A DNA stretch of 64,000 nucleotides, from contig CM059431.1 of NCBI GenBank assembly GCA_030390025.1, positions 113,710,001 through 113,774,000 on the forward strand, in the 5' to 3' direction. Source of the DNA: Squalus acanthias. Its lineage: Eukaryota. A model generated the notes under the pieces. The model had not been told where the DNA came from. It made no database searches and saw only the letters and a list, made by a program, of their open reading frames with translations. Every line of letters starts with the position of its first letter. Positions within the stretch are counted from its first letter, which is position 1. Below are positions 22,918-61,186 of the stretch, piece by piece. The translations under genes and the position numbers were made by a program.

Positions 22918-23155
22918 ATTCTCCTCCAAGTCACACACCATCCTGATGTGGAAATATATCGGCCGTTCCTTCATTGTTACTGGGTCAAAATCCTGGAACT
23001 CCCTCCCTAACAGCACTGTGGGAGTACCTCCACCACACAGACTGCAGCGGTTCAAGAAGGCGGCTCACCGCCACCTTCTCAAGGGCAACTAGGGATGGGC
23101 AATAAATGCTGGTCTTGCCAGCGACGCCCACATCCCATGAATGAATTAAAAAAAA
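22918..23155 (+). mobile_element. CR1-group LINE family B, 3' fragment
   Basis: SKSWNSLP coding end plus tail GCCCACATCCCATGAATGAATTAAAA. Confidence 0.85.
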
Positions 23156-27972: not shown

Positions 27973-28086
27973 TTACATTTTTTGATTTTGGAATAAAGTA
28001 CAAAACTGCCCATTCTTGTGTAGAGTTCTTGTAATTATGTACAGAGAGTAAGTTCTGCACCAAGACTGTCTCACCAAGATTGTGTC

Positions 28087-28536
28087 AGCCGTGGCTCAGT
28101 TGGTAGCACCCTTGCCTCTGAGTCAGAAAGTTGTGGGTTCACAGTCCCACTCCAGAGACTTGAGTACAACAACCTAGGCTGATGCTCCAGTGCAGTACTG
28201 AGGGAGTGCTGCACTGTCGGAGGTGCCGTCTTTCGGATGAGACGTTAAACTGAGGCCCCATCAAAAGATCCCATGGCACTATTTTGAAGAAGAGCAGGGG
28301 AGTTATCCCCGGTGTCTTGACCAATATTTATCCCTCAATCAACATCACTAAAACAGATTATGTGGTCATTATTACATTGCTGTTTGTGGGAGCTTGCTGT
28401 GTGCAAATTGGCTGCTACGTTTCCTACATTACAACAGTGACTCCACTCAAAAAGTACTTCATTGGCTGTAAAGCGCTTTGGGACGTCCTGAGGTCGTGAA
28501 AGGCGCTATATAAATGAAAGTCTTTCTTTCTTTTTT
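28087..28536 (+). mobile_element. tRNA-derived Deu-domain SINE (SacSINE1/AmnSINE1-like)
   Basis: A box TGGCTCAGTTGG, B-box-like GGTTCA, Deu core GGAGGTGCCGTCTTTCGGATGAGACGTTAAAC, L2-like tail. Confidence 0.88.
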
Positions 28537-30214
28537 CTCTAACAAGCAGTTCTAACAATAGGTAACTGGCAGACACTGCCTCATAGCTATAATTTTGTTA
28601 TATCTTTGTTTCTACTTTTGTATTGACATAATGCTGTAGATGGTAAAGGGTACAGATAATTTAGTGTATTTGCTTATCCCAATTGAATTTTAGCTATCTC
28701 AAAGATAACTGAAATGGTGCACAGCAGGGACAGGTATCCGGTAATTGTGCCGCTTCAGCCATGATTTCCCAACTATTATGGATGAAAACTCATGGGCTGG
28801 GTGTGCACAATCTCTCACTCCAGGCAGGTGGCGGTTGCCTCAAAGCAGAAAATCTCCCTTTTATTGTACGCACAGTAATGCTTCCAAATCGGTTAGTGTA
28901 TTGCCTTCTTGAAGCGAAGTACCAAAATAACACCAGGCCTATAAAACTGAGGGATACTAACATAGAAATCTTTATTGTATTTGTCTGAACTTCTTCTCTC
29001 TAATTTAGCAGAGGCATTAGCCCATTTATTATCTATAAGTTGATTAATGTTTCCACTAACCTAACAGAGAGAAGAATTGCAGGCAACCATACTAAGCTTC
29101 CTTACGTTAGTATCCCACAGAGCAATCTCTGCACCGCAATGTATTAGTTACACTAGCTGGCATTAATTTGATGGTGTATAAGTCATACCCCCAATTTCTC
29201 TGGTCCTAGACATCTGCATAAAGGTGTGACTTATGCAACAAATGTTATGGTAAGTTTTTTTGTGTTACTACAATCTTGATTTAGAATCTTGAGTTCCAAA
29301 AGACATTGGTTTGTATCTGTAATAATGGAGTTTCTCAGTGTTGTATAGATAAGGTTTTATTAAAGAGAAGGTACTGAACAGAAGATCATTTCTGAATTCT
29401 TACTTTTCTTGCAATAAATCAGATAATTGTAATCATTTTGCACATTTCTAAATTCTGGTCTAACGTTCCTGTTATTTGGAAAGGCAAAAGACCTTTACGT
29501 TCATTTCTGAATATTAATGTCAATCAATGGTAGTTAAAATCAGTCAAAATACTGCTGGTTTAATTAAATTTTTGTGTGTTTTCATTTCCAATGTTTATTG
29601 ATTCCATCAAACAGTGCACACTTTAAAGCACACTGAATTCATTGTGAATTAGTGTAACCCATGCATACTATGCAAAACTCTTTCACTGTCTTCTTCTTTG
29701 TCCAAAAAAACTGTACCACATACATCACTGATCATTAATATAGGTCTAATCATACAAAGGTGTTGCATATCATGTACTACATGCATTACATAGACGTTAT
29801 CCAACACAAAAGAAAGAAGGGTGACAATAAGTTCCTTAAATAATTCTCATTTAACTCTTTGAGTACTGAATACCCATTGCAGCTTTCAACATTCCTGTAT
29901 CATATATCTACACAGGAGGGTTTTGTCTAAATTTTTAATACTAAGTATCATGAAGTTGCATTTCAGAAACAGAAGCCATAGAATATTTATTTATGTATTT
30001 ATTTATTAAAGATATTTATACAGGCTATCAAGCAGAGCAGCTTACAGAAGCCACAAAGTACAAAAGATAAAATGAATATAACGCAAATCAAATCAGTCCT
30101 TTCATTGACATGTCTAACTGTTTAGTTAACCACTAACACAGTCATTCCTTGGTGAAGTCTATTATAATAGTTGTGAATGGTCTGGGAACTGTGGAAATAA
30201 ATAAGAATAAGACT

Positions 30215-33709: not shown

Positions 33710-34647
33710 ATCATAGAATCATAGAATGGTTACAGCACAGAGGAGGCCTTTTGGCCCGTTGAGCCCGTGCCGGCTCTCTGCAAGAACACTTCAGCTAGTC
33801 CCACTCCCCCGCCCTTTTCCCGTAGCCTTGCAAAATTTTTTCCTTCAGGTACTTATCCAATTCCCTTTTGAAAGTCACGATTGAAACTGCCTCCACCACC
33901 CTCTCAGGCAGTGCATTCCAGATCATAACCACTTGCTGCGTAAAAAAGTTTTTCCTCATGTCGCCTTTGGTTCTCAACCCTTCCGCCAATGGGAACAGTT
34001 TCTCTCTATCTACTCTGTCTGGACCCCTCATGATTTTGAACACCTGGATCAAATCTCCTCTCAACCTTCTCTGCTCAAAGGAGAACAACCCCAGCTTCTC
34101 CAGTCTATCCACGTAACTGAAGTCCCTCATCCCTGGAACCATTCTGATAAATGATTTCTGCACCCTCTCTAAGGTCTTCACATCCTTCCTAAAGTGCGGT
34201 GCCCAGAACTGGACACAATACTCCAGCTGAGGTCAGACCAGTGTTTTATAAAGGTTCATCATAACTTCCTTGCTTTTGCACTCTATGCCTCTATTTATGA
34301 AGCCCAGGATCCCGTATGCTTTTTTAATGGCTTTCTCAACCTGCCCTGCCACCTTCAATGATTTGTGCACATATACTCCCAGGTTTCTCTGTTCATGCAC
34401 TCCCTTTTGAATTGTACCCTTTAGATTATATTGCCTCTGCTCGTTCTTCCTACCAAAATATATCACTTCACACTTTTCTGCGTTAAATTTCATCTGCAAC
34501 TTGTCCGCCTATTCCACCAGCCTGTATATGTCCTCTTGAAGTCTATCACTATCCTCTTCACTGTGCACTATACTTCCAAGTTTTGTGTCATCTGCAAATT
34601 TTGAAATTGGGCCCTGTACACCCACGTCCAAGTCATTAATATAAATC
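33710..34647 (-). mobile_element. CR1 LINE, 5'-truncated
   Basis: MKFNAEKCEV and RRLRGDLIQVFKIM; tail ATAGAATC repeats. Confidence 0.92.
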
Positions 34648-34889
34648 AATAATATATATATTATGCACTACAGTACATACAACTCCGTATTTGGCCTTCA
34701 TTGGTACCAAAAGGGGTCAGCAGCACAGTGATAAATGCAAAAAGTACTGGATCAAGCAGATCTCCGCTTGAGTGTCATTCTCCTGGTGCCCAACATCAGT
34801 ATAAATACACTTCATTGGTTTACTTATGTAGCCCTTAAAGGACTGGATTTTATCTCACTGTGTGCCAATGAATTTTACAAAACTATGAT

Positions 34890-35477
34890 CCTCAGAAAAA
34901 ACGGGTTTCTTGACTGTACCTTTAAGTGGGGTTCCCGCCCACAGACAGCCTGATTGACAGGCTGGAGGTCTTTCTGGCGGGAAGCCTGCTTCACAAGCCG
35001 ATGGGAGCAAGTAGGTGTAATTGGGGAGTGAAAGAAATTGTGTGTGGTGGTGAGGGGGGAGTCCGGATCGCGGGGGGTCCGAATCACGGGGGGAGTCCAG
35101 ATAGCAGTGGTGAATCCGATGGTGATCTGGGGGGAGGGTCCCGATTGTGTGGGGGTAGGGTTGTTTAATGGTACTCTGGGGGTCCTGATTGTGGGGGGGG
35201 GAGGGGCGGATGGCGGTTGGGGAGGGCAGATGGTGATCAGTGGGGAAGCAGACAGATTGCCGGGGGTGGGGTGGGGGGGATTACTGCGTAGCTTGCTGGG
35301 CCTAGAGGAAACACTCCTGCTCCTCCTGGCCCAAAAGCAGTCCTGTAAAGGCACTTACCTTGTGGATTCAGCCCATCTCACCTCCTTTAAGCTGCTGGGT
35401 TTCTCGAGGCCTGGGAAACCTGGCCACCTGTGGTTAAAAATAGAAGGCAGGCAGCCTCATTATAATATTTAAATAAC
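34890..35477. mobile_element. GC-rich non-autonomous DNA element fragment, cut by CR1 (probably resumes at 37076-37130)
   Basis: G-rich interior, CAGCCTGATTGACAGGCTG hairpin; a non-CR1 55-bp spacer lies between the two flanking CR1 copies. Confidence 0.45.
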
Positions 35478-37075
35478 CATAGAAACATAGAAAAATAGAA
35501 GCAGGAGTAGGCCATTCGGCCCTTCGAGCCTGCTCCGCCATCCAATATGATCATGGCTGATCCTCTATCTCAATACCATATTCCCGCTCTCTCCCCATAC
35601 CCCTTTGACGCCTTTTGCGTCTAGAAATCTATCTATCTCTTTCTTAAATATATTCAGTGACTTGGCCTCCACAGCCTTCTGTGGTAGAGAATTCCACAGG
35701 TTCACCACCCTCTGAGTGAAGAAATTTCTCCTCATCTCAGTCCTAAATGTCCTACCCCATATCCTGAGACTGTGACCCCTCGTTCTAGAGTCCCTAGCCA
35801 GGGGAAACATCCTCCCTGCATCCAGTCTGTCTAGCCCTGTCAGAATTTTATACGTTTCAATGAGATCCCCTGTCATTCTTCTAAACTCTAGTGAATACAG
35901 GCCTAGTCGACCCAATCTCTCCTCATACAACAGTCCTGCCATCCCAGGAATCAGTCTGGAGAACCTTCGCTGCACTCCCTCTATGGCAAGTATATCCTTT
36001 CTTAGGTAAGGAGTCAAAAACTGCACACAGTACTCCAGCTGTTGTCTCACCAAGGCCCTGTATAACTGTAGTAAGACATCCTTGCTCCTGTACTCAAATC
36101 CTCTTGCAATGAAGGCCAACATACCATTTGTCTTCCTAACTGCTTGCTGCACCTGCATGTTTGCTTTCGGTGACTGGTGTACAAGGACACTCAGGTCCCT
36201 TTGTACATCTACATTTCCCAATCTATCACCATTTAAATAATACTCGGCCTTGCTGTTTTTCCTACCGAAGTGGATAACTTCACATTTATCCACATTATAC
36301 TGCATCTGCCATGTATTTGCCCTTTCACTCAACTTGTCTAAATCGCCTTGAAGCCTCTTTGCATCCTCCTCACAACTCACAATCCCACCTAGTTTTGTGT
36401 CATCAGCAAACTTGAAAATCATTGATATATATTGTGAATAGCTGGGGCCCAAGCACTGATCCCTGCGGTACCCCACTAGTCACCGCCTGCCACCCCAAAA
36501 AAGACCTATTTATTCCTACTCTCTGTTTCCTGTCTGTTAACCAATTTTCAATCCATGCCAGTATATTACCCCCAATCCCATGTGCTTTAATTTTGCACAC
36601 TAACCTCTTCTGTGGGACTTTATCAAAGGCCTTCTGAAAATCCAAATACACCACATCCACTGGTTCTCCCTTATCTATTCTACCAGTTACATCCTCAAAA
36701 AACTGCAGTAGGTTTGTCAAACACGATTTCCCTTTCACAAATCCATGTTGACTTTGCCTAATCCCGTTGATATTTTCTAAGTGTCCTGTTATCACATCCT
36801 TTATAATAGACTCTAGCATTTCCCCTACTATTGATGTTAGGCTAACCTGTCTGTAGTTCCCTGTTTTCTCTCTCCCTCCTTTTTTAAATAGTGGGGTTAC
36901 ATTTGCCACCCTCCAATCTGCAGGAACTGTTCCATAATCTATAGAATTTTGGAAGATAACAACTAATGCATCCACTATTTCCATGACTACCTCTTTTAGT
37001 ACTCAGGGATGCAGATTATCAAGCCCTGGGGATTTATCAGCTTTCATTCCCATTAATTTCTCCAGCATTATTTTC
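35478..37075 (-). mobile_element. CR1 family A LINE, 5'-truncated
   Basis: RT motifs in ORFs 36403-36984 and 35565-36476; tail CATAGAAA repeats. Confidence 0.95.
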
Positions 37076-37130
37076 TTCCAGCGAGCGGATTGGTCACCCG
37101 CCCCTTGTCTGGCCTTTGTTAAAACCGGAA

Positions 37131-38483
37131 ACCAGATCCCTCTGTACCGCAGCATTTTGTAGTCTCTCTCCATTTAAATAATAATTTGCTTTTTTATTCT
37201 TCCTACCAAAATGGATAACCTCACATTTTCCCACATTATACTCCATCTGCCAAATTTGTGCCCACTCACTTAACCTATCTAAATCCCTTTGCAGATTCTT
37301 TGTGTCCTCCTCACAACTTGCTTTCCAACCTATCTTTTTATCATCCGCAAATTTGGCTACATTACACTCGGTCTCTTCATCCAAGTCATTAATATAGATT
37401 GTAAATAGTTGAGGCCCTAGCACTGATCCCTGTGGCACCCCACTAGTTACAGTTTGCCAATCTGAAATTGACCCATTTATCCCGACTCTCTGTTTTCTGT
37501 TAGTTAGCCAATCCTCTATCCATGCTAATATATTACCCCCAACCCCGTGAGCTCTTATCTTGTGCAGTAACCTTTTATGTGGCACCTTATCGAATGCCTT
37601 CTGGAAATCCAAATACACTACATCTACTGGTTCCCCTTTATCCACCCTACTCGTTACATCCTCAAAGAACACTAGCAAATTTGTCAAACATGATTTCCCT
37701 TTCATAAAACCATGCTGACTCTGCTTGATTGTATTATGATTTTCTAAATGTCCTGCTATTACTTCCTTATTAATGGATTCCAGCATTTTCCCAATGACAG
37801 ATGTTAAGCTAACTGGTCTATAGTTTCCTGCTTTCTGTCTCCCTCCTTTCTTGAATAGGGGCGTTACATTTGCGGTTTTCCAATCCGCTGGGACCTCTCC
37901 AGAATCCAGGGAATTTTGTAGATTACAACCAATGCATCCACTATCTCTGCAGCCACTTCTTTTAAGACCCTAGGATGCAGGCCATCAGGTCCAGGGGACT
38001 TGTCTACCTTTAGTCCCATAAGTTTGCCTAGGACTTTTTCTCTAGTGATAGTGAATGTTTTAAGTTCCTCCCTCCCTATAGCCCCTTTATTATCTATTAT
38101 TATTGGGATGCTTTAAGTGTCTTCTACCATGAAGACCAATACAAAATATTTGTTCAAAGCCTCTGCCATTTCCCTGTTTCCCATTACTAATTCCCCAGTC
38201 TCATCCTCTAAGGGACCAACATTTACTTTAGCTACTCACTTCCTTTTTATATACCTGTAGAAGCTCTTACTGTCTTTTTTTTATATTTCTTGCTAGTTTA
38301 CTCTTATAATCTATCTTCTCCCTCTTTATTATTTTTTTAGTCATCCTTTGCTGGTTTCTAAAAATTTCCCAATCCTCTGGCCTACCACTAATCTTCACAA
38401 CATTGTATGCCTTTGTTTTCAATTTGATACCATCCTTAACTTCCTTAGTTAGCCATGGATGGTTCATCCTTCTCTTAGAGTCA
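37131..38483 (-). mobile_element. CR1 family A internal fragment
   Basis: HPWLTKEVK, QHGFMKGKSCLTNL, GVPQGSVLGP, FADD. Confidence 0.92.
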
Positions 38484-38494
38484 CTGGAATAGTC

Positions 38495-39700
38495 GGGCTC
38501 AGTCCTCAGCATATAAAAATATTTGAGTGTGAAAACACTTTAGAGAGGTCATTTAACATAACAAAGGTGGATGTAAAGACAGACCATTGAGGGATTCCAA
38601 TAAAATCTATGCAGAAATCAGACAAGGTATTTTAGATGCAGACCTTGATGTCTGTTTCTTGCTATGAGTGAAATAATGGTGCGAACATGTCAAACTAACC
38701 GAGCCCCTTCAGTCTGTTATGTAAAGTGTTGTCATTTACTCTATCAAAAGCTTTCTTAAGCTCCATAAGCAGAGTGCCACATATTTTCAATACCATTCCT
38801 AATTTGGTTAAGGAACTCAAGTAAACTGCGGAGGGAGAATGTTCAGGACAGAATCCTGGTTGGTGTTCATCAATTAATCAATGATTCATTAGGTAATCAT
38901 AGAGTTGTTGATCCACAGCTTTCAATACCTTTGATGGAAGAGACAAGCAATGTCCTGGTGTGTAGTTTCCATAGATTGCTTAGGAATCTGCGACTATTGT
39001 GGTAACTCGTTGGCAGCTTTCTAAACCAAAGGAAATGAGGCTGTAGTAAAGACAGGTTATGGTGTATAGTATAGCCTTATTACAATGTAGCTATTGGGAT
39101 ACTGCCAAATAGCACATTATAATGATGATAAGGCATATGAAGACCTCATTAACTGCTACACAATGATGGAATATAGCAATCCTGTTTATCAGGCTTTACG
39201 GGAAAGTCATCCTTGTTCCTGGACTCAATACATTCCAGCATCATTAAATTCATTTGACTCGATAAGGTTACCCTACTCCAAGCTAGTGCTCATCCTCGAC
39301 AACACCACAGAGATGTAGCCAGGCTGCCTGTCTTCTACAAGATCAGACTAGAACAGCAGCATAAGTCAATGCATAAACCAGGTCTCTACCCTTATGCCAT
39401 GCATGCTAGAGCTGTTGTCGCTGCATCTCAAACTTGAGTAAATCCATTAAATCTATACGGAATAAACAGCTTTACCTACTTCTGCTCTTGTCTCTGAAAC
39501 TCTGTGGGAATGCTACCTGGAACTCTGTCATTAATTTGCAGAAGTTCTCAAAGAGCAGACAACCTTTTGTTTCATCAGTGTTATTGGAGCAGCCTTTAGG
39601 CCATGGAAATTCCCTGTTCACGTTCTTGGCAACCTGGCTTACATTTATCCAAGCTTTTATGCTTTCAACAACCATCCAGCTTAATATTGTGAAACATCAA
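38495..39700 (-). mobile_element. Ancient decayed LINE RT (L2/Crack-like, clade uncertain)
   Basis: Manual translation across frameshifts gives SKVLKAVDQQLYDYL..HQPGF..KAFDRVN..GIPQWSV..NDL..YAED; upstream limit uncertain. Confidence 0.65.
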
Positions 39701-40064
39701 CCCTACTACATCCTTTCATTATGCTACTTAATATACAAAAAAATACCTCCGTTAGATGCAATGCCTTCAGCTGGGCAGAAGGCAGCTTGGGTTGCAACCA
39801 AAAGCCCAATCCTCTGAATCCTCTGAACTTGTTTATGCTTCATCAATGGTAGAAAATGAAAGCCCAATCAGCAAAAATGAATTTGCATACATTTTTGCCA
39901 GTGGTCTCATACCATTTGAACTTTCATGGACCAGTAACCCTTTCTGTTGTTAAAAGAGTGCAGTATCTACAAGTGGAGGAATGGTGACGTGAGTGCAATT
40001 TACTGGTACCTTGTGATCAGAGAATGTCACTTGATTACTAAAATTGCCTGCAGCATGGTGATGG

Positions 40065-43000
40065 TTTTTTTTCATTCGTTTTTATGGGATGTGGGCGTCG
40101 CTGGCAATGCCAGCATTTATTGCCCATCCCTAGTTGCCCTTGTGAAGATGGTGGTGAGCCAACTTCTTGAACCGCTGCAGTCCATGTGGTGAGGGTACTC
40201 CCACAGTCCTGTTAGGGAGGGAGCTCCAGGATTTTGACCCAGCGACGATGAAGGATCGGCGATATACTTCTAAGTCATGATGGTGTGTGACTTGGAGTAG
40301 AACTTGGAGGTGGTGGTGTTCCCATGAGCCTGCTGCCCTTGTCCTTCTAGGTGGAAGAGGTCGCGGGTTTGGAAGGTGCTGCCGAAGAAGCCTTGGCAAG
40401 TTGCTGCAGTGCATCTTGTAGCTGGTACACCCTGTAGCCACGGTACACCAGTGGTGGAGGGAGTGCCAATCAAGCGGGCTGCTTTGTCCTGTATGGTGTC
40501 GAGCTTCTTGAGTGTTGTTGGAGCTGCACTTGTCCAGGCAAGTGGAGAGTATTCCCTCACACTCCTTACTTGTGCCTTGTAGATGGTAGAAAGGCTTTGG
40601 GGAGTTAGGAGGTGAGCCACTCGCCACAGAATACCTAGCCTCTGACCTACTCTTGTTGCTACAGTATTTATGTGGCTGGTCCAGTTAAGTTTCTGGTCAA
40701 TGGTGAACCCCAGGATGTTGATGGTGGGGGATTCGGTGATGGTAATGCCATTGAATGTCAAGGGGCGGTGGTTAGACTCTCGCTTGTTGGAGATAGTCAT
40801 TGCCTGGCACTTCTGTGGCGCGAATGTTACCTGCCACTTATCAGCCCAAGCCTGAATGTTGTCCAGGTCTTGTTGCATGCGGGCATGGACTGCTTCATTA
40901 TCTGAGGAGTTGTGAATGGCACTGAACACTGTGCAGTCATCAGCGAACATCCCCATTTCTGACCTTATGTTGGAGGGAAGGTCATTGATGAAGCAGCTGA
41001 AGATGGTTGGGCCTAGGACACTGCCTTGGGGAACTCCTGCAGTGATGTCCTGGGGCTGTGATGATTGACCTTCAATCACCACAACCATCTTCCTTTGCGC
41101 TAGGTATGAATCCAGCTAGTTTTCCCCCCGATTCCCATTGACGTCCATTTTACTCGGGCTCCTTCATGCCACAACTGGTCAAATGCTGCCTTGATGTCAA
41201 GGGCAGTCAATCTCAACTCACCTCTGGAATTCAGCTCCTTTATCCATGTTTGGACCAAGGCTGTAATGAGGTCAGGAGCCGAGTGGTCTTGGCGGAACCC
41301 AAACTGGGCATCAGTGAGCAGGTTATTGGTGAGTAAGTGCCACTTGATAGCACTGTCGTTGACATCTTCCATCACTTAGCTGATGATTGAGAGCAGACTG
41401 ATGGGGCGGTAATTGGCCGGGTTGGATTTGTCCTGTTTTTTGCGGACAGGATATACCTGGGCAGTTTTTCACATTGTCAGATAGATGCCAGTGTTGTAGC
41501 TGTACTGGAACAGCTTGGCTAGAGGCACGGCTTGTTCTGGAGCACAAGTCTTCAGCACGATAGCCGGGATGTTGTCGGGGCCCACAGCCTTTTCTGTATC
41601 CAGTGCGCTCAGCTATTTCTTGATATCACGTGAAGTGAATCGAATTGGCTGAAGTCTGGCTTCTGTGATGGTGGAGACCTCAGGAGGAGGTCGATATGGA
41701 TCATCCACTCGGCACTTCTGGCAGAAGATGGTTGCAAACGCTTCAACCTTGTCTTTTGCACTCCCGTGCTGGGCTCCACTATCATTGAGGATGGGGATAT
41801 TCATGGAGCCTCCTCCTCCCATTAGTTGTTTAATGGTCCACCACCATTCATGACTGGATGTGGCAGGACCGCAGAGCTTTGATCTGATCCGTTGATTGTG
41901 GGATCGCTTAGCTCTGTCCATAGCATGCTGCTTCCGCTTTTTAGCATGCATGTAGTCCTGTGTTGCAGCTTCCCCAGGTTGGCACCTCATTTTTTTTAGG
42001 TACGCCTGGTGCTGCTCTTGGCATGCTCTTCTACACTCCTTATTGAACCAGGGTTGGTCCCCTGGCTTGATGGTAATGGTAGAGTGAGGGATATGCTGGG
42101 CCATGAGGTTACAGATTGTGGTGGAATACAATTCTGCTGCTGCTGATAGCCCACAGCACCTCATGGATGCCCAGTTTTGAGCTGCTAGATCTGTTCTGAA
42201 TCTATCCCATTTAGCACGGTGGTAGTGCCACACAACACGATGGAGGGTGTCCTCAGTGTGAAGACGGGACTTCATCGCCACAATGACTGTGTCACTGCTA
42301 CCAATACAGTCATGGACAGATGCATCTGTGACAGGTAGATTGGTGAGGATGAGGTCAAGTAGGTTTTTCCCTCGTGTTGGGTCTCTCACCACCTGTCGCA
42401 GGCCCAGACTGGCAGCTATGTCCTTCAGGACTCGGCCAGCTTGGCCAGTAGTGGTGCTACCGAGCCACTCTTGGTGATGGACATTGAAGTACACCCAGTG
42501 TACATTCTGTGCCCTTGCTACTCTCAGTGCTTCTTCCAAGTGGTGTTCAACATGGCGGAGTACTGGTTCATCAGCCGAAGGAGGGCGGTAGGTGGTAATC
42601 AGCAGGAGGTTTCCTTGCCCATGCTTGACCTGAAGCCATGATACTTCATGGAGTCTGGAGTCAATGTTGAGGACTCCCAGGACCACTCCTTCCCGACTGT
42701 ATACCACTGTGCCGCCACCCCTGGTGGGTCTGTCCTGCCGGTGGGACAGGACATACCCAGGGATGGTGATGGAGGAGTCTGGGACATTGGCTGAAAGGTA
42801 TGATTCTGTGAGTATGACTATGTCAGGCTGTTGCTTGACTAGTCTGTGGGACAGCTCTTCCAATTTTGGCACAAGTCCCCAGATGTTAGTGAGGAGGACT
42901 TTGCAGGGTCGACTGGGCTGGGTGTGCCGTTGTCGTCTCAATAGTCGGTGCCAAAGTCGATGCAAGGTGGTCCATCCGGTTTTATTCTTATTGTTTTTCG

Positions 43001-43356
43001 TAGCATTTTTTTTACAACTGAGTGGCTTGCTAGGCCATTTCAGAGGGCAGTTAAGAGTCAACCACATTGCTGTGGGTCTGGAGTCACATTTGGGCCAGAT
43101 CAGGTAAGGACAGCAGATTTCTTTCCCTAAAGGACATTAGTGAACCAGATGGGTTTTTATGACAACCCAATAGTTTCATGGTCACCGTTACTGATACTAG
43201 CTTTTTATTCCAGATTTATTTAATTAACTAAATTTAAATTCCCCAGCTGCTGTGGTGGGATTTGAACTCACGGTTTTTTGAACTCACGTCTCCGGATCAT
43301 TAGTCGAGGCCTGCTGGATTACTAGTCCAGTAACATAACCACTATGCTACCATTCC
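40065..43356 (-). mobile_element. Near full-length CR1-group LINE family B (tRNA-like head, EN+RT, no ORF1)
   Basis: EN motifs TNIWGL, DIVILTESYL, YRPP, LDLIL; RT motifs QFGFR, GVPQGSVLGP, FADD; several frameshifts; A/B boxes at the 5' end. Confidence 0.92.
43258..43349 (-). promoter_or_regulatory. Pol III type-2 promoter of the LINE head
   Basis: A box TAGCATAGTGG (43339-43349); B box GAGTTCAAATCC (43258-43269) with a local duplicate GTGAGTTCAAA. Confidence 0.7.
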
Positions 43357-43830
43357 TGGTAAGTTGCTGCCCTTCCACGATATGATCAATGAAATAAAAC
43401 CTCCTCTTCAAAATCTCAAAAGTATGCTCTATCACTGAACATGTAGCACGGCATGCCTTCCATATTGATTCTTGCTCAGGGTTTTGAAGATGTGGCACAG
43501 AAGTCATTAGTTAGAGCTTCAGGCAGAAACCATGGTCACCTACCAAAAACAATTCAAGTGAAATTGTAAACAGCATGTTCAGAATGAATACCCCAGGCCT
43601 ACAGCTAACACCTTTCAACCAGCCAGCCCTTGGTTATTTCTATTGCTCTTAAGCAGTCTGCACAGGGAACCAGCAATCAGGGCAAATGGCACTTTGTAAG
43701 CATGTCTGTAATAAATTTACTGGCACTACGTACCATCTGGGCATTCGCAAAATTAAATCCTTTCCTGTTGCAGATGTGATTCAGTATGAACCAGTCTTTC
43801 AGTGGGGCTTGTGGGCAACATTTTTCTGGC
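43357..43830 (-). pseudogene. Ancient Harbinger transposase relic
   Basis: CNRKGFNFANAQMV and TCSVIEHTFEILKRRFYFID match [13 protein letters not shown] and [24 protein letters not shown] motifs. Confidence 0.7.
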
Positions 43831-44409
43831 AGTATTTTCTCTCCTCTTCTGCCTCTCATTTTTTCTTAATTTTGCCCAAAGTAAGAAACCTGTACCTGAC
43901 CAAGCAAAAACCACATTTGATTTTGTTAAACAGGGCACGAAATAGGAAGCAGTGGTTTGGACACATAACCAGTAGAGACGGGACAATTTAATGGTAAACC
44001 CAATTCAACTATTTGTGTTTGATGTCTGACCTATTGACTTCATATTCTTTTATAGTTGGTTGTCCCTTGTTTTTCCTTACATATTTAATTTCTTGACCTT
44101 TTTAAAAGGACAGCTCAACCCTAATTATAATTGTGGATCAGCAGAAAGTTCACTCACTATTGCATCTACTGGAGGTTCTGTTTGGTTCCAGCTGGGCAAA
44201 GCTGCTGGTGTCAGAAATCGCCGAGATAAACTGGGTTCTTAAAGAACTGCTTTAACCCTTTTACTTCTGAAGGAATAATGCAGATACATTTATACCGAGG
44301 AGGTAGAGTCATATCCTATTCATTTAAAAATAAGTTCGGGTATGTTGGTGCAATAAAGCTGCAGCATCATTTTTCTTTCCTTCCCAAATTTCATGAGTGC
44401 ATCAAAAAA

Positions 44410-44762
44410 TATATAATTCTGTCAATAAAAAGCTGGTGCCAGTAAAAGTGACCATGAAGCTGTCGGATTGTCATAAAAACCCAACCAGTTCACTGATGTC
44501 CGACAGGGAAGAAAACTTGCTGTCCTTACCCGATCGAGCATATACGTGGCTCCAGTCCCACACCAATGTGGTTGACTATTAACTGCTCTCCGAATAGGTC
44601 GCGCAAGACGTTTGTTTGTATCAAACTGCTACAAAGAATAACAAGCACCGCACGGACTACAGTGTTTCAAGAAGGAGGATCAGCACCACCTTCTCAGGGC
44701 AACGAGGGATGGGTTAGAAATGCCGACCTTGCCAGTGGCGCCCAATCCCGAGAATGAATTTA
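44410..44762 (+). mobile_element. Short bipartite element: LINE-B 5' leader joined to LINE-B 3' tail
   Basis: GTGACCATGAA..TAAAAACCCA..GTCCTTACC..AATGTGGTTGACT matches the rc of about 43030-43230; CACCACCTTCTC..GGGATGGG..CTTGCCAG matches the LINE tail. Confidence 0.8.
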
Positions 44763-45787
44763 CGGTTCCACAAATGACGATTGCCCTCCAGTACCACCGC
44801 CCAAGTGTCCTTTCTTCACTTTTACGGCTGGCAAAGAGTCTTTGTGGGTTATCTAACTGTCTGAGCACCGCAATGGAGCCTAACCCAGGGAACATGCAAT
44901 GCTGCTCTCCTTGGTTATGGTAACTGGGCATTTTTATTTTTAATTCAGGGAGAGCACAGGCTGGTAGAACATTTACAGCTCATATAAGTCCTGTGTCGAG
45001 GGCCTAAGGTAACTGTTAGCAATTGTGTTGACATTCACCTCAAAACAGAAGTGTTCTCTCCCATCCCTGCACTTTTCCCTTGTGACTAAACTAAAGTGGC
45101 AGGAAAGCTACCTTGATATTGATGCTGAAGATAGATCTAGAATCCTTTACATTATAACAGAGTTTAATATTAATTACTAATATTACCAATTCTTTGCTTC
45201 CCTTCCTAACTTGCTGAAAATTATTGCAGAGTTTATTCTAGATATATTAATTTTGATAAGAGTGAGGGCATAACAAAGCTTCATTGGTATGAGGTGACAT
45301 CATTTTGGAATTTTACACAATTATGTTTGGGGAGAAAGGAGAATCTTTTCCTAACTTTCCCCCATGCACATAAATAAGTCTGGTGGAGTCCATGAAAGGG
45401 CAAATTGAACATGGTTTATGGAGACATGGGGCTAGAAATTCATTATAGCCCAGGAATTGGTGGTATAGTTAGAAAAGTTGGAGAATTAGCGCCAGGCGCT
45501 AATGCTTTAGATTGCATGCAAAATTCATGCTCACTGCTCAAAGAAATGATTGGAGCGCTAATTCAAGTCTTTAAGCCCAAGCTGATTGCTGTTATACTCA
45601 AAGGGTGGATCAATATCAGGTGCAGTCCAATCGCAGGTCATGATTGTCACAGGCTTTTTCCAGTTCTTAAAGGGAAGGTTCATTGATGCTGCAGAACCTC
45701 ATTCTCAGCATTACTGGCTGTGCAGCTGCCTCAGCAAGCAGCAGCAGGTCAAGGAGAAGGAGCCAGAGGACTGAAGCAGCTGTACTC

Positions 45788-47680
45788 ATGGCAGATCCAC
45801 GCCCCAGGGAGAGAGCCCGCAGAATCTGCGATCAAGCATTGGAGGCACTGGTGTTCGCTGTGGAGAGACGGAGGGCGGTGCTCTACTTGGCAAGTAGCAG
45901 GAGGCCCTCGCTGCAAGTCTTCCAGACCATGTGCAGAGAGGTAGCACAGCACATCTCGGACAGCACTGTGGTCCTCCGGACCCATACACAGTGCAGGAAG
46001 AAATTTAACGACCTCACTCGGGTGGTCAGGGTGAGTCAATGCTTCAACAAATGCTACATACCACCATCTGTACCACAATCTTCACACACTGTCCAAAGCA
46101 CAACATCCCCAGCACTCACCCACCAACTATCTCTACCTACCAACACTCACACCCACATCTCACACCTTGCACACAATGACAGCTATTCAACTATGACCTG
46201 CACATCACCCAAACACATTGCTCCACACTCATGCACACACTTTCCTTTCTCTTGAAGACTAAGGTGGCTCATAACAGGAGGGAGCAGGAGCGCATAGGCG
46301 GGGGACAAGCTGACACCCAACCACTGTCTGCGCTGGAGAATAGAGTGCTGCAGATTATTGGGCGCCATGACCACTGGCAACGTTGACCCCCTTGGGGACA
46401 AAAACGGTATGTTCATCCCTACTCCTTCTTCTCACATCCCACTTCCGCCTCACCCCACAAGCGTTTCGCACTTTCCAGCTAATCTTGCTGTATGCATGCA
46501 TTTCTCCCTTCCTGCCCCCCTCCCCTCACCTTAACCTGACTCTTGTGCCTTTATGCATTCAGATAATGAGCAAGCACTGGAGCAGCCTATCCCTGAGGGC
46601 ACCGTTGAGAGTGAGGCAGGAGAAGATGAGGAGGAAGAACACACTGCATCACTGCATGTCTCACCCGCAGGCACCAGCTCAGATACTGGCACTACGCGTT
46701 CTTTAGAGGCTAGTATCGTAGCAGGATCTGCACAGGGTGAGGCACCAGGAACAAGTGGGCTGCAGCAAGGCCAGGGGGAAAGGGTAGCTCGGGAGCCAGC
46801 TTGCCGGAGGGCAAGTTCGCGCGCGAGTTCTGCTGCACAGGACTCAGATGAGGACCTCGATGGGGAGGCCTTTAGAAGAAGGGTGATGGGCATGCACACG
46901 GAGATGATAGGTGCAATGGCAAGGATACCCGAGAGCCTCTCGGCAATGATAAGGAGCGTGGAGGAGTCTGCCTCCAACATTGCACAAGGCTCTGTGCACA
47001 CCATGGAGCCCATCATTTCCAGTCTGCAAAGGATGGTGGACTCCCAGAGAGACTGTGGCAACCCAGACCTGATGTTGCGTGTGATGGGCGATCTGGCAGC
47101 TTTCATTGCAGCACAGGCGGAAGTGACGCAACATCTTAGTGCTGTAATGCAGTCTATGCTTGGTGGCATCCAATCTCAGACTGCTCTCATGCAGTCTCAG
47201 CTTGATGCCACGCAAGCTCTGACTGCTGCCATCGTGGCTGGGTCTACCACCGTCAACGGGGTCTTACACGGTGTCGCAGCAGGCCAGCAATCTGTGCTGC
47301 AACAGATTGCTAGGGATGCTGAGGTACTGCCCCGGGGGAGTGTCAGTGGGTCAGTGAAGCAGGAAGCAGCTGTCCTCTCTCAGGATGACAGCATTCCTGC
47401 TCCCACCACTGCCACTCCGCCATTGCCCTTGTCGCTGCCTGTCATCCAGCCAGTCCAGACTGCTGCCGCCCATGCTGAGGTGATGCAGTCTACAGCCGGG
47501 CCTTCCAGGCCCAGAGCTGGTTGAAGGCGTCCTGCAAGGCCATCTGACGTCTCCCGCACGGACACTCAGCAGCCTTCCACCAGCCGTGCTGCAGCCACCA
47601 GGCCAACACTTCATAGGAGCACTAGAGTAGGCAAAGGCGCAGTAATGAGGGGTACTAAGGGATTGCACAAGGGTGAATAG
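45788..47680 (+). pseudogene. H1 Myb/SANT DNA-binding gene; exons 45788-46030, 46258-46406, 46563-47680
   Basis: RERARRICDQALEALV...RTHTQCRKKFNDLTR; GT-AG introns; exon 2 shortened and frameshifted; premature TGA at 47522. Confidence 0.85.
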
Positions 47681-47832
47681 TTAATATTTTTGTTGTAAGT
47701 ATGTGTTCACTGATTTTTGATAAATTTATTAATTCAGTTTGGATTCGTTTGTGGTGTCTCTCATTTCAGGTTCGCGCTGTGATATGGCCTATGATGGGGA
47801 TGTGGTGGGCAATGGGGATCTTGGGTTTAATT

Positions 47833-50148
47833 CTTTCGAACCGCAGTCTGATGAGGCGATCACGGACCGCCCTTCCGGAAGGACTATTGAGTGGCTGCCT
47901 CCTCCCTCACTCCTGTTCCTCCTCCTCCTCGTCCTCCTTGTCTTCCTCATCCTCCTCTTCCTCCTCTCCCTCTTCCTCCTCCTGAGGTGGTCCCACAATC
48001 CCTGGTGGCAAGGGCTGGGCCCTCATGATGGCCAAGTTGTGGAGCATGCAGCAGACCACCATGAAATGGAACACCCGCTCCGGCAAGTACTGGAGGGCTC
48101 CTCCCGAGCGGTCAAGGCAGTGGAACCATTGCTTGAGTACCCCGATGGTCTGCTCGATGATGTTCCTGGTGGCGGCATGGCTCTCATTATATGAGTGCTG
48201 GGCAGGAGTGTTGGGGTTGCAGAGGGGACTCATGAACCAGGTGGAGAGCAGATAGCCCTTGTCTCCGACCAGCCAGCCGCGAGCTCGATGTGGTGGCTGG
48301 AAAGGTACTGGCACACCGATCTGGCGCAGGATGAAGGCATCGTGGCTGTTGCCAGGATAGCGGGCATTCACATTGAGGATTCGCTGTTTGTGGTCACACA
48401 GCAACTGCACATTAAGTGAGTGGTAGCCTTTGCAGTTATGGAAGAGCCCAGGATTGTTATGAGGTGCCCGCAAAGCCACGTGTATGCATTCAATGGCGCC
48501 CTGCACCACGGGGAATCCCGCTAAGCTGGCAAAGCCACATGCACCCTCGTCCTGCTTCTCTCTGGTGATGGGGAAGGAAATGTAGTCCCTCCCCTACTGT
48601 AGAGAGCCTCTGTGACCTCCTGGATGCAGCGATGGATGGCGAACTGCGAGATGTTAGCTATGTCTCCTGTTGCAGACTGGAAGGATCCGCTGGCGAAGAA
48701 ATTGAGGGTGACGGTGACCTTGACTGCCATTGAGAGAGCCGTGGTCGTCCTGATCTGAGGCTCGAGGTCTGGCTGCAGGAGGTGGCAGAGTTCTTTGACC
48801 AGCTCCTTGGTGAAGCAGAGCCTTCTAATACACTGCTCCTCGTTTAATTAGAGGTCGGAGACGTGCTCTTGGAATACCTTCGGAGGGTAAGGCCTCCTGT
48901 TGAGAGCCCTGATTGAAGGGTTAATTATTAGTCCTAGCCCCTTTAGGGCTACCCCGGATCAAGCGTATTCCTCAGATGTTCACTTTCAACTAAAGTTTGA
49001 GGTAGCCGAATCCTAAAGACGCTTAATTGGGTCTAAAGGTCCGGACCATCTCTCCCTAAAGGAAAGGAATAACCTGAAAATGTTACTGTCCTCCAGATAG
49101 CACTTTTAATAAGTTTAGCTAGACTGTAACGTTTCGGATATTATGAGGGTCCGGAAAACTGCCCCAGAATTCTGCAACTCCTCACCAAAGAGCGTACAGA
49201 GATTGAGTTTGCGAGTTTGATACAGAAGTATTATGTGAGACAATTCTTAAAATATATAGATTTATTAAAGAACCGACATGTAATTTACAGTTGGTGAGTC
49301 AATCGCAACATTAACAGTTCCAAAAAGAGAAAGCTTTGCAATCTTATTATCAGAGATCTTTATTCTCAAATCTTAACTTCGCTACAGTTTTACAGTTCTT
49401 AGTCTTATTCAGGATATCCACCAAAATCAGTTCCTTTTGATCCCCGAGGTACAAAGAGTTGTAGACTTACAGAGCCACCTCTGAAGCCTGAGAATCGCTT
49501 TGCCCCTTTTCAGCGAATCTATTATCCTATTTGAGAGTTCAATATTTATACCCTTTTCCAGTGGTATTCCCTTTAAGATTTTCTGCTGATGTAAGCTAAT
49601 TATCTCTAGTCATTTTTCTGCTGACTTCTGCAATTCTTAGTCACCTCAGCTGGTAGCAATACAGACTCGTGTCTCCTCTAGGTGTTCCAAGCTTACCATA
49701 AAAAATGGTGTAACAGCAGGTGCATTTTATTTGATGTCATTTTTACTAAGGCCTTCTGTTTGTGCCTCTTTACGAAGTGTAAATTAGATCACCTTGTACA
49801 GGGTCACCATTGTCTGCTCCCAAAGATTCAGACTGTCGGGATCCTTTAACCTTCTGTTTCAATAAGGTTATTGATTCAGTGTCAACAACTATCTTATCTC
49901 TATTGCCAGAATGCTACTACAGCTTTTTCAGTTAGGTTTCCAGATTTCCAGACCCAGTTTGTCATGCTTTAATAAGGCCAGAATTCTTTCATAGTATGGT
50001 GTATTTTTCTGAATAGGTTTTATGGCTTATTCCTTCACATGATGGCCCTCCTCCTCCCTCTGGCCACATGTTCCACTCTTTCTCATTGCCTCCGCTCCCT
50101 CTGCCGTACATCCTGGAGGGTGAGGTCGACTGCCAGTACAGCCCCCAT
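47833..50148 (-). pseudogene. H1 Harbinger DDE transposase, split by the LTR
   Basis: [43 protein letters not shown]; frameshifts and stops. Confidence 0.92.
48914..50039 (-). mobile_element. Solo LTR, 1126 bp
   Basis: Termini TGAAGG...CCTTCACA; TSD TGAT; minus-strand TATAAA (49545-49550) and AATAAA (49261-49266); removal restores RAIRALNRRPYPPKVF. Confidence 0.88.
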
Positions 50149-56524: not shown

Positions 56525-56717
56525 GCTGCTGGCAGATACCTCCGTTGGGGAAGCGCTCAGTCCAAGCGGGGAGAGGGTTTTCCAAGGAGGTCCCACAGTT
56601 GAGAGATAGAAGCTGCAGCACCTCTGACTTCGGTAGGACTGCTAAAAGTGCTGAAAGACCTGTGCAACAAAAGTTCTGCCACCTGCAACTGATCCCTGTT
56701 GAAAGCGCCAGACCACC

Positions 56718-57123
56718 GGATGTCTCAAAGCGCTTGACAGCCAATGAAGTACTATTTGAAGTGTAGTTACTTATGTAATGTAGGAAACGCAGGAGCCAAT
56801 TTGCACACAGCAAGGTCCCACAAACAGCAATGTGATAATGACCAGATAATCTGTTTTTTTGTTATGTTGGTTGAGGGATAAATATTGGCCAGGACACCGG
56901 GGATAACTCCCCTGCTCTTCTATCGAAATAATGCCATGGGATCTTTTACGTCCACCTGAGAGAGCAGATGGGGCCTCGGTTTAACGTCTCATCTGAAAGA
57001 TGGCACCTCTGACAGTGCAGCACTCCCTCAGACTGCACTGGAGTGTCAGCCTAGCTTTACGTGGGACTTGAACCCACAACCTTCTGCCTCAAAGGCGAGT
57101 GTTCTACCAACTGAGCCACAGCT
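56718..57123 (-). mobile_element. Deu-domain SINE
   Basis: Reverse complement of 28087-28536, tail slightly truncated. Confidence 0.88.
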
Positions 57124-58010
57124 CCCAAGATGGTGCATAATCAGCCCCTTTAATGTTTTATTCTGCTTTTCTCCCCCAAGAATGTTCCATTCAATATCTT
57201 TGAATTAATGATTTTTGATGAACCTTTCAGAGCCTTACACTTTATTCAAACATCATAGATAACATTAATGGGTTGTTCATTGTAATCCAGCATTCTAATT
57301 GATTATCTTCTGGGACTGATTCCCCTGATGATGTTTGAGGCAGAAACGCAATGTGGGCAAATTTTAAACTGCTTTTCGGGAAGAAGAACAATACAGGCCA
57401 TCATCTACCACAATCCGCCAGCTGAAAAATAAGACATTCAATCAAAGGTCGCCGGTAATAAGACAAAATAACCATCTTAAATACTGGCAGTCAGCCACTT
57501 GACCTTTGAAGATGAAGTGATCGACATTGGCAAGAAAACGTAGAAAATAGCACTGAGTGTAAACACAGTGGAAGTTTAAATTTTCATCCGTAGCACTCAG
57601 AATGTTTATTTTACGTGAAAAACACATCAAATACCAAGTGACAGCCATCGTCTTTCCTGCATTAAGCAAAAAAAAGGCAGCGAAAGTACTAAAATGGTAT
57701 ATCTGAGAACTGCAGGAAGCCCATCTTACTCACCTGAAAGGTAAACAAAACATTATACAGATTTAATGAAAGCTTGCTGTGCTAGACCCACTGCTGAGGT
57801 CTGCTGCTCTGCTCTCGGCAGCCTACCATTTCACCCCCAATTCATTTTAACGAACAGGAGAATTGCAGGCAAACAGGAGCAGGAGTGGGAAACTCTGGCC
57901 CATATCCTTACTGAGTCAAAAATTGCCATGGAAAGAAGGTTGTCCAGAGCTACCATCTTGTAGAATAGTCATCTGAACTGTTCTTCCGGTTGAACTGGTT
58001 CTGACGAAGC

Positions 58011-58025
58011 AGCTGTGGCTCAGTT

Positions 58026-58056
<31 letters not shown>

Positions 58057-58480
58057 GTGGGTTCATAGACCCACCCCAGAGACTTGAGCACAAAAATCTG
58101 GGCTGAAACTCCAGTGCTGTACTGAGGAAGTGCTGAATTGACAGAGGTGCCGTCTTTCGGATGAAATAATAAATTGAGGCCCCGTATGTTATCTTAGGTG
58201 GATGTAAAAGATCCCATGGCACTATTTCGAAGAAGAGCAGGGGAGTTATCCCCAGTGTCCTGGCCAATATTTATCCCTCAATCAACATAGCAAAAACAGA
58301 TTATCTGGTCATTATCACATTGTTGTTTGTGGGAGCTCGCTGTGCGCAAATTGGCTGCCGTGTTTCCTACATTACAACAGTGACTACACTTCAAATAGTA
58401 CTTCATTGGCTGTAAAGTGCTTTGGGAAGTCCTGAGACCGTGAAAGGTGCTGTATAAATGCAAGACTTTCTTTCTTTTTT
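58011..58480 (+). mobile_element. Deu-domain SINE, full length
   Basis: tRNA head, Deu core and L2-like tail. Confidence 0.9.
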
Positions 58481-58511
58481 CATTGTGTTATGAAAACATC
58501 TCTATATCTCC

Positions 58512-58969
58512 AAAAGAGAAAGACTTGCATTTATATAGCACCTTTCATGACCTCAGGACACCCCAAAGCACTTTACAGCCAATGAAGTACTTTAGAAATG
58601 TAGTCATTGTTGTAATGTGGGAAACGCGGCAGCCAATTTGCACACAGCAAGATTCCACAAACAGCAATGTGATAAATGACTAGATAATCTGTTTTAATGA
58701 TGTTGGTTGAGGGATAAATATTGGCCAGGATACCAGAGATAACTCCCCTGCTCTTCTTTGAAAAGTACCAGGGGATTTGTTACTTCCACCTGACAGGGCA
58801 GACGGGGTCTTGGTTTAACGTCCGGAAGACGGCACCTCCGACAGTGCAGCACTCCCTCAGCACTGCACTCGAAGTGTCAGCCTAGATTTTTGTGCTCAAG
58901 TCTCTGGAGTGGTTCTTGAACCTACAACCTTCTGACTCAGAGGCGAGAATGTTACTACTGAGCCACGGT
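58512..58969 (-). mobile_element. Deu-domain SINE, full length
   Basis: Reverse complement of the adjacent copy. Confidence 0.9.
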
Positions 58970-59825
58970 TAACACCATATTGTTACATATTGCATAATAT
59001 AGGCACTGTAATATTTATTTTACTATTTTTTGTAGAATATATACATTATTAGTTTCCCAAAGTAAAGAGATTCAAGACAGTATCGGGGCAAATTCATGTT
59101 CTAGACTCCACTGTGAAGCTTCGCCCACAGGGAACGCTCTGGAATTTAGGTGTGGAGGTCAACAGGTTCCACAGAATTTTCCGTCCACAATGGACAGAGT
59201 TCTGTTAGCAGGGGTCGTGTTGCTGTATGTATTGGCAATGAATCTCCTCCAAGGACCTGGTATGAAAATACCATAATCTGGGCAGGCGGGGCAGGAACTG
59301 GAGCAGGGCTGCATTGTGCTGGGTCCCTTTCCCCTTTCCCACCTGCCAAAATATCCCTTCAGTCTTGAGGCAGGCGCATAAATGATGCCCAGCAAATGAA
59401 GGAAATGTAGCGTACAACATATTTCCCTCACTCGCGCCTTTCGTAATGCTGTGTGTAAGGGACGTCTGTGCGTCCTAACATCCATCATTTCTCAGGGCCT
59501 CAAAGGTAGAATTTAAAAATGAAGGGGGAGAAATTCGGCATGTTTGGCAAAATTGACTGTCGCCCCCTGCCTTAGCGCCTGGCCTGAACAACGGCAGGAA
59601 GAGGAGGCGTGATGCATTCGGACGGCCGCTGTAGGAGTGGTATTTAAAGGGATCAATATCCGGTTTGATTTTAGTGGCCAATCAATGCTGCCTTCTCAGT
59701 TTCACATTGCGAAACAGCCGTTTTCAGTGAGTTAAACGTTTCTTACTTTCAGGAGTGTTCTGGCTGCTACAAATTTGTCACTTTCATTCTGCTAAGATTT
59801 CAAAGTCCTACATTTGGTTACATTA

Positions 59826-61024
59826 ACAGGGGCTATACTGGCACTCGAACTTGCCCTCCAGCATCAACGCGGAGGCAGCGGAGGCAGAGACAAAGATTAG
59901 AAAATGTGACCAGAGGGAGGAGGGCTAACAGGGCATTCAACAGGAGGCCTTACCCTCCCAGGGTATTCCGGGAGCGCTTCTGCGACATAAATTTAACTGA
60001 GGAGCAGTGTCTTAGAAGGCTCCGCTTCAGCAAGGAGGTGGTCACAGAGCTCTGCCACCTCCTGCAGCCAGACCTCGAGCTTCAGATCAGGACCACCACG
60101 GCTCTCTCAGTGGCAGTCAAGGTCACCGTCGCCCTCAATTTCTACACCAGCGGATCCTTCCAGTCTGCAGCAGGAGACATATCTAACATCTCGCAGTTCA
60201 CCATCCATTGCTGCATCCGGGAGGTCACAGATGCTCTCTACAGAAGGAGAAGGGACTACATTTCCTTCCCCATCACCAGAGAGAAGCAGGACAAGCGTGC
60301 ATGTGGCTTTGCCAGGATAGCGGGCTTCCCTTTGGTGCAGGGTGCCATTGACTGCACCCACGTCGCTTTGCAGGCACCCCATAGCAATCCTGAGGTCTTC
60401 TGTAACTGCAAAGGCTACCACTCACTTAATGTCCAGTTGGTGTGCGACCACAGACAGCGAATCCTCACCGTCAATGTCCGCTATCCTGGTAGCAGCCACA
60501 ATGCCTTCATCCTGCACCAGACCGGTGTGCCAGCTCTGTTCCAGCCACCACGTCAAGCTTGTGGCTGGCATGTTTGAGACAAGGGCTATCAGCTCTCCAC
60601 CTGGCTCATGACTCCCCTCCGCAACCCCAACACTCCTGCCCAGCACTCATATAATGAGAGCCATGCTGCCACCAGGAACATCATCAAGCAGACCATCGGT
60701 GTGCTCAAGCAATGGTTCCACTGCCTTGACTGCTCGGGAGGAGCCCTCCAGTACTCGGCTGAGCGGGTGTCCCTTTTTGTCGTGGTGTGCTGCATGCTGC
60801 ACAACTAGGCCATCATGAGGGCCCAGTCATTGCCACCAGACATAGATGGACCACCTCAGGAGGATGACGAGGGAGAGGAGGATGGTGGGGAGGAGGAAGA
60901 GGAGGAGGAGGAGGAGGAGGAGGAGGAACAGGGGGAGGAACAGCAGCGAGGGAGGAGGCAGCCACTCAATCGGCCTTCCGGAAGGGCTGCCCATGACCGC
61001 TTCATCAGCCTGCGGTTCCAATAA
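59826..61024 (+). pseudogene. H3 Harbinger DDE transposase
   Basis: GAIDCTH, KGYHSLNVQ, IKQTIG; start codon appears mutated to ACA; stops at 60575 and 60806. Confidence 0.92.
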
Positions 61025-61186
61025 ATTCTACCCCACATCCCGGTTGCTCACCACATCCCCATCCCATCCATTTCACTTGCCATATCACAGCGCAAAGCTG
61101 AAATTAGAGACAGCACAAATCCTGCAAAATTCAATTAATAAATTTATCAACATTCAGTAAACACATATATACAACAACAATATTAA

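Follow-up and report, generated by a model that had tools for sequence, protein, structure and literature searches.

A stretch of 64,000 nt of Squalus acanthias DNA (the window) contains a tRNA-like sequence with an A box and a B box directly in front of a LINE. LINEs are taken to be RNA polymerase II (Pol II) elements, and retroelements that RNA polymerase III (Pol III) transcribes are taken to be non-coding. The locus raises two questions: whether head and LINE are one element or neighbours by chance and, if they are one element, which polymerase makes its RNA.

Head and LINE together form one retroelement, a full-length Zenon copy of 3,292 nt (Table 1). By its sequence, the element is a copy of the elasmobranch Zenon LINE, in the CR1 group: its 5′ 400 nt resemble SquAca_Zenon-1, the closest of the Zenon consensuses compared (by eye), and an exact 16-nt motif from it is matched in two rows of the supplement of PMC13343379. 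This supplement gives ten vertebrate Zenon consensuses, of which the first 400 letters of each were compared by eye; placement of the clade relies on the reverse transcriptase (RT) tree in that paper, with the window copy assigned by consensus likeness. Five of the seven elasmobranch consensuses have lengths of 3.24–3.31 kb (PMC13343379). As in Zenon, the APE endonuclease and RT lie in one ORF (Pfam, tblastn), and single-ORF relatives span 42887–40145 by tblastn, one of them, of 934 aa, aligning along this whole interval. The 3′ UTR contains AATAAA (40121–40116), a short hairpin recognized by eye (40114–40100) and a terminal A8 (40072–40065), and A-rich ends recur in sibling copies and contig loose ends; the loose ends listed cluster at 43351/43356 and at 40084–40086. 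Unlike canonical CR1, which has an esterase ORF1 (or close kin with one) and a tail other than poly-A, the element has no ORF1 and its tail is poly-A, and BLAST between it and the CR1 copies of the window found no DNA similarity.

This copy is dead. Its frame is interrupted by stop codons at 41615, 41471 and 41378 and by frame breaks near 41105 and 40470, its CpG observed/expected ratio is 0.36, and any target-site duplication is at most 4 nt, no longer than chance. The insertion is common to a second species, because a contig from that species (set X14) crosses from the flank into the head (43326–43700, 20 differences in 375); it predates the split between the two and is a potential phylogenetic marker. 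The named close protein matches of the window DNA are Heterodontus francisci gene models, and the DNA is of shark type. Pieces of the Zenon LINE also occur within predicted shark host proteins (P0156, P0160, P0161, P0043 and P0015), where they are probably gene-model artefacts or exonisation.

Table 1. Features of the Zenon copy and of other repeats in the window (window coordinates)
Feature	Position	Strand	Evidence or remark
Zenon copy, full-length, decayed	40065–43356	-	Consensus match, contig ends, tblastn
tRNA-like head (D arm, anticodon arm 43330–43314, T arm)	43254–43356	-	Rfam
A box TAGCATAGTGG	43339–43349	-	At +8, its place in tRNA genes
B box GAGTTCAAATCC	43258–43269	-	Sequence
Leader body (5′ UTR), conserved	43013–43253	-	76% identity to 44407–44645
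A-rich spacer and basic N-terminal extension, endonuclease frame	42906–43012	-	Loose-end consensus at 43013
APE endonuclease domain	42309–42905	-	PF14529 E 6.6e-7, PF03372 E 1.4e-4
Reverse transcriptase domain, frame break near 41105	40699–41354	-	PF00078 E 8.5e-9 and 5e-18
3′ end: stop 40132, 3′ UTR, tail	40065–40132	-	Sequence
Short derivative, 5′-truncated, leader joined to LINE tail	44407–44759	+	BLAST
5′-truncated sibling (RT end and tail)	3542–4552	+	85–91% identity
Shorter 3′ pieces of the same Zenon LINE	2355–2691, 22919–23155		85–91% identity
Deu-domain SINE copies, ~460 bp (n = 4)	28086–28537, 56711–57123, 58010–58481, 58512–58982	+, -, +, -	
GC-rich repeats	45611–49076, 59905–64000		Related, opposite orientation
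Canonical CR1 pieces, decayed	5621–6933, 13543–17073, 33846–38548		Controls for T-run counts

The original prediction was that this may be an autonomous SINE-headed LINE rather than a chance neighbour, to be checked by looking for another 5′ end or an ORF1 in relatives. It held: the head–endonuclease structure belongs to the family, a conclusion that we regard as next to certain and that three lines of evidence support. First, and decisively, this head and leader stand at the start of all seven shark and ray Zenon consensuses, from five species (PMC13343379), two of which reach the endonuclease start within the visible 400 letters; unlike these and the window element, three other Zenons (two hagfish, one coelacanth) show no such tRNA head within their 400 available 5′ letters (PMC13343379).

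Second, contigs of three organisms (X5, X11 and X14) were mapped on 39850–43700. Summed word depth, which is not copy number, is 13–41 in the upstream flank and, in X5, X11 and X14 respectively, reaches 0.52, 0.61 and 2.1 million in the head bin, 0.46, 0.94 and 2.5 million in the bin over the junction, with 0.97, 0.27 and 2.1 million at the endonuclease start, so that the three depths are of the same order with no gap between them. Among the loose ends listed for X11, 444 contigs stop at 43351 and 483 at 43356; these hundreds of ends lie in unlike flanks and therefore mark a common 5′ end. Among the 21 rows of loose ends listed, with 15,325 further rows in the set, none lies at the endonuclease start. 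Record 23 of X5, which differs from the window at 50 letters and so represents another copy, bridges 42779–43037. By their contigs, elasmobranch Zenons are highly abundant in the three species.

Third, a translated leader or spacer precedes the endonuclease in 4 of 150 proteins by tblastn (P0003, P0009, P0028 and P0145) and, by eye, in P0001, P0007 and P0151; these junction-bearing proteins are predicted gene models that may be spliced, and most close matches begin inside the endonuclease, where they carry no information on the junction. We discarded P0020, P0086 and P0123 (28–34% identity), three of the seven proteins reaching above 42960, as alignment run-on. Raw reads of a distant organism (X22), uninformative on this point, gave 159 placed reads, 150 of them partly placed, with none on the head. 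Nothing usable came from protein searches of metagenome and viral contigs or from DNA-motif searches of viral and prokaryote ones, and one metagenome match (L001) was a chance match in unrelated sequence. The family structure is thus a head, a leader of ~240 nt, an APE–RT frame and a poly-A tail, without ORF1.

The element opens, as predicted, with an A box and a B box, and the predicted ~450 bp between the boxes and the endonuclease is confirmed by the TNIWGL motif, whose start at 42890 lies 459 nt beyond the A box. The resemblance of the head to a tRNA is partial. Its acceptor stem is not evident, the Rfam tRNA match at 43350–43254 is weak (20.9 bits, E 0.38, below the 29-bit cut-off) and ARAGORN called no tRNA at the head of this copy. 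Paired A and B patterns are nonetheless rare by chance: the 64-kb window has two pairs, whereas 200 block shuffles average 0.015, and the second pair, near 57075, belongs to the head of another SINE. In the window copy, a local 16-nt duplication creates a second B-like box at 43285–43274 that is absent from the published Zenon consensuses compared. Within the head of this subfamily, an anticodon-like arm also appears to be tandemly duplicated (43330–43291), and other species have a different insert between the two boxes. Across five elasmobranch species, the A and B boxes are retained while the intervening sequence differs (seven consensuses, by eye), with the B core intact in six of the seven. 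That the boxes are kept despite changed sequence between them suggests that selection acts on the A/B-box promoter. The tRNA-related head with both boxes is that of a SINE2 element; the element is not short and non-coding as SINE2 elements are, being 3.3 kb long with an APE–RT frame.

Between the head and the APE endonuclease, the window copy has a leader of about 350 nt. The 466 nt between the 5′ end and the endonuclease leave no room for an ORF1, as had been predicted, and the ATGs of the leader open short frames only. The lack of ORF1 had also been presented as a departure from the group. It is real and ordinary: every Zenon surveyed lacks ORF1 and ends in poly-A, all Rex1 and many L2 elements likewise lack ORF1, and the absence, already published for Zenon, is therefore unsurprising (PMC13343379).

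The predicted opening of the reading frame at 43067 applies to this copy, in which an ATG there is in frame with the endonuclease; the start is not conserved. In the seven elasmobranch consensuses, the frame opened by this ATG is closed by a stop ahead of the endonuclease in five and is one base out of register in two (by eye), the latter presuming no indel in the few letters beyond view. The in-frame register is thus probably particular to the window copy, judging from these alignments. The A-rich stretch after this ATG is variable and the register between ATG and endonuclease varies between copies; contigs clipped at 43013 have 7 letters versus 8 in the window. A second ATG, ~100 nt upstream of the endonuclease, is present in six of the seven consensuses, although the window copy has lost it by mutation. 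Its register differs too, being in frame in SquAca_Zenon-2 but not in the ray consensus. The window copy also has an ATG-GCC-TAG mini-ORF at 43038–43030 on the minus strand, a possible site of re-initiation or read-through. In the consensuses of three species, ATG-GCC-TAG stands in the endonuclease frame just before the long frame, with no later ATG in view. Without a conserved in-frame upstream AUG, a non-AUG start, re-initiation or a frameshift is needed. Non-standard starts are known for several LINE ORF2s.

The leader itself may be a native Zenon 5′ UTR or the body of an unnamed SINE. Its predicted folding in the window copy is not unusual (z −0.83). We rejected its identification as a Deu domain or SacSINE1, as the published Deu alignment is unlike the leader (by eye). 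The Deu motif occurs in the window at 28223, 56991, 58147 and 58820, with no occurrence within 43356–42900, and BLAST between the window Zenon and the Deu-motif repeats gave no match. Against MetaSINE and UCON3 alignments, no likeness beyond a 9-nt word was seen by eye.

We propose that Zenon is an autonomous single-ORF element whose 5′ end was replaced by a tRNA-derived head before sharks and rays split. The A and B boxes would form an internal type-2 promoter from which Pol III would make a 3.3-kb RNA starting at +1, and this promoter would be carried along in every new full-length copy. Purging of T-run terminators from the sense strand would let Pol III reach the end of the element and stop in flanking DNA. 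The uncapped RNA would then be translated via a non-standard start, which we propose because the upstream AUG is not conserved in the endonuclease frame, and its protein product would use target-primed reverse transcription, beginning at the 3′ hairpin and A tail, to copy it. It has been argued that SINEs cannot encode protein and that Pol II cis-elements conflict with Pol III transcription (PMC5786205); in R2, uncapped LINE RNA is translated through a 5′ structure (PMC6765202). To this whole account, in which an autonomous, protein-coding and Pol III-transcribed Zenon captured a tRNA promoter, had 3 kb of coding sequence rewritten to avoid Pol III terminators and has its uncapped RNA translated by way of the leader, we assign a probability of about 0.5. 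For its central element, transcription of the coding Zenon RNA by Pol III, the sequence evidence gives somewhat better than even odds.

For Pol III to read the whole element, TTTT and TVTTT, which were its shortest terminators when assayed in mammalian systems (PMC8466645), have to be missing from the sense strand. The sense strand of the window Zenon has no run of four or more Ts (T4; 4.6 expected) and 9 runs of three or more (T3; 22.8 expected). Counting T4 or TVTTT, the sense strand has 0 versus 8.3 expected, a count that none of 400 shuffles equalled; on the antisense strand there are 25 versus 27.1 expected. Taking both strands of the window, the longest stretch free of T4 runs from 43395 to 40044 and coincides with the element, and the first T4 downstream lies 30 nt past its end. 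A second copy of the Zenon LINE has one T3 in 1,011 nt, where 7.8 are expected; six canonical CR1 pieces of the window have 26 runs of T4 or longer in 7,543 nt, and their phenylalanine codons TTT/TTC number 52/29, versus 3/16 in the window Zenon. None of the seven elasmobranch Zenons has a T4 in its published 5′ end, and all three others do, with at least 7, 1 and 5 runs in their first 400 letters (by eye), although these head-bearing and head-less ends are untranslated regions of unrelated origin. A terminator-free sense strand fits Pol III transcription, as far as sequence can indicate.

The strongest competing explanation, which we consider possible but doubtful, is that Pol II makes the RNA, from a leader promoter or by host read-through, with the head a passenger or a helper (the tRNA part clearing nucleosomes or binding TFIIIC) and the scarcity of T an inherited codon bias. 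The codon usage itself lends this some weight, in that the window Zenon has a general preference for C-ending codons. The T4 statistics are also marginal under strict nulls (for T4 absence alone, P 0.09 by dinucleotide shuffle and P 0.06 by third-base control), and the CR1 pieces fall somewhat under their own third-base null (76 versus 90.7). A GC-rich, Harbinger-type DNA transposon is likewise poor in terminator motifs, with 1 versus 7.6 expected in a stretch chosen for being T4-free. Two old copies of Deu-SINEs, which are Pol III elements by class, contain 5 and 6 terminator motifs. The AATAAA and A tail are equally compatible with Pol II, and translation would be simpler with a capped RNA. 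Against Pol II stand the strand specificity of the T3 depletion, which survives the third-base control (5 versus 16.4 expected, 0 of 2,000 resamples), the T4 runs in the three head-less Zenons, the conservation of the A and B boxes in five species despite the altered sequence between them, and Zenon 5′ ends that fall at tRNA +1.

A division of labour, in which the Pol III RNA is copied as a very long SINE and other copies supply the protein through capped Pol II transcripts, would account both for the terminator purge and for an in-frame AUG not being conserved. We think it unlikely: a full APE–RT frame is more easily kept for long when the RNA served by the protein is the one that encodes it, and intact ORF2 copies are on record for some families. 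Less likely by a good way is that the head is a processing signal, with RNase P cleaving at tRNA +1 in transcripts that read through. This would explain the exact 5′ ends at +1 and has a precedent in the HDV ribozymes that free R2 and L1Tc RNAs, but ARAGORN, Rfam and folding found no intact cloverleaf, and the T-run purge would go unexplained. Chance adjacency of a SINE and a 5′-truncated LINE at this locus, to which the decay of the window copy and its want of a convincing target-site duplication might have pointed, is already refuted by the same junction in published consensuses, other contigs and gene models.

The Pol III account extends to a short form, made of leader and tail, that would depend on the same enzyme. 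One such copy lies head to head with the full Zenon, ~1 kb away, and matches it at 76% (43225–42987) and 79% (40191–40086). Leader and tail are joined on the 6-nt word ACGGAC, common to the leader consensus and the tail majority, and each of the three contig sets has leader-to-tail joints, with the depth listed for them being low. This copy alone is short and non-coding, as SINE2 elements are, and its head is missing. Its divergence (76–79%, versus 85–91% for the LINE pieces) leans slightly towards the short form being older. The short form may have donated the head by template switch, or it may have been excised from a headed LINE.

Other repeats surround these elements. The four Deu-domain SINEs are probably SacSINE1-like, a name inferred here; those at 58010–58481 and 58512–58982 form an inverted pair, and the copy near 57075 retains its A and B boxes. 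The GC-rich repeat at 45611–49076, also poor in T runs, encodes a DDE_Tnp_4 transposase (47910–48593, E 1e-30) and a weak Myb/SANT-like ORF (45788–46252), which fits a PIF/Harbinger DNA transposon. Two of the CR1 pieces lie in tandem at 35634–38548.

Zenon elements have been described from elasmobranchs, coelacanth and hagfish (PMC13343379), and the window element does not differ in kind from SquAca_Zenon-1/2/3, CarCar_Zenon-1, RhiTyp_Zenon-1, ScyCan_Zenon-1 and HypSab_Zenon-1, of which it is a copy: these have the same 5′ sequence, ~3.3 kb and a single APE–RT ORF, and share the absence of ORF1 and the poly-A tail (PMC13343379). Hagfish, coelacanth and lepidopteran Zenons are also ORF1-less with poly-A (PMC13343379, PMC6740152). 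The head is printed in a table of PMC13343379 without description there. In the text available, tRNA, promoter and polymerase III have no mention and SINE appears in a reference only; tRNA has no match in the supplement available, and the preprint is alike. In the literature searched, which takes in few subscription papers and neither Repbase nor Dfam, we found no description of a tRNA-headed Zenon or of a coding LINE transcribed by Pol III. Both the family and its consensus have been published; within that literature, the head and the terminator purge appear to be new.

Several known systems share parts of this architecture. The moth SIDE Persaeus is, like the short derivative, an internal-deletion derivative joining Zenon 5′ and 3′ parts, and its breakpoint carries a short direct repeat; unlike the window element, it is stated to have no tRNA homology and no Pol III promoter (PMC6740152). 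Bov-tA, SINE2_Gav and SINE2-1_EC combine a tRNA head, a LINE 5′ part and a LINE tail, as at 44407–44759, but they derive from RTE and Vingi rather than the CR1 group and carry the head on the non-coding derivative only, whereas in Zenon it sits on the coding LINE (PMC5786205). RTE-1_DAn and relatives are LINEs said to hold a tRNA-like sequence and, unlike Zenon, belong to the RTE clade (PMC5786205). SacSINE1 and the DeuSINEs are tRNA-headed shark SINEs (PMC5499810, PMC4824008), headed as Zenon is; they are a different family, since the Zenon leader lacks their Deu motif, which the window has in four other repeats. R2, like the proposed Zenon, is an ORF1-less LINE translated from uncapped, non-Pol II RNA; it differs in Pol I co-transcription, ribozyme cutting, site specificity and a different endonuclease (PMC6765202).

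Shark repeat annotation will cut Zenon copies into a SINE and a LINE. If the proposed account is true, Zenon would provide a natural 3.3-kb coding Pol III RNA, an exception both to the rule that LINEs are Pol II elements and to the rule that Pol III retroelements are non-coding, and this RNA would require an unusual cap-independent translation start. It would also record a module exchange from a SINE-type head to a LINE and offer a direct route to SINE birth by deletion; with a short partner that is the same element minus its ORF, the boundary between SINE and LINE would be removed. The head-bearing Zenons of sharks and rays and the head-less Zenons of hagfish, coelacanth and arthropods form a natural comparison, which makes the question testable.
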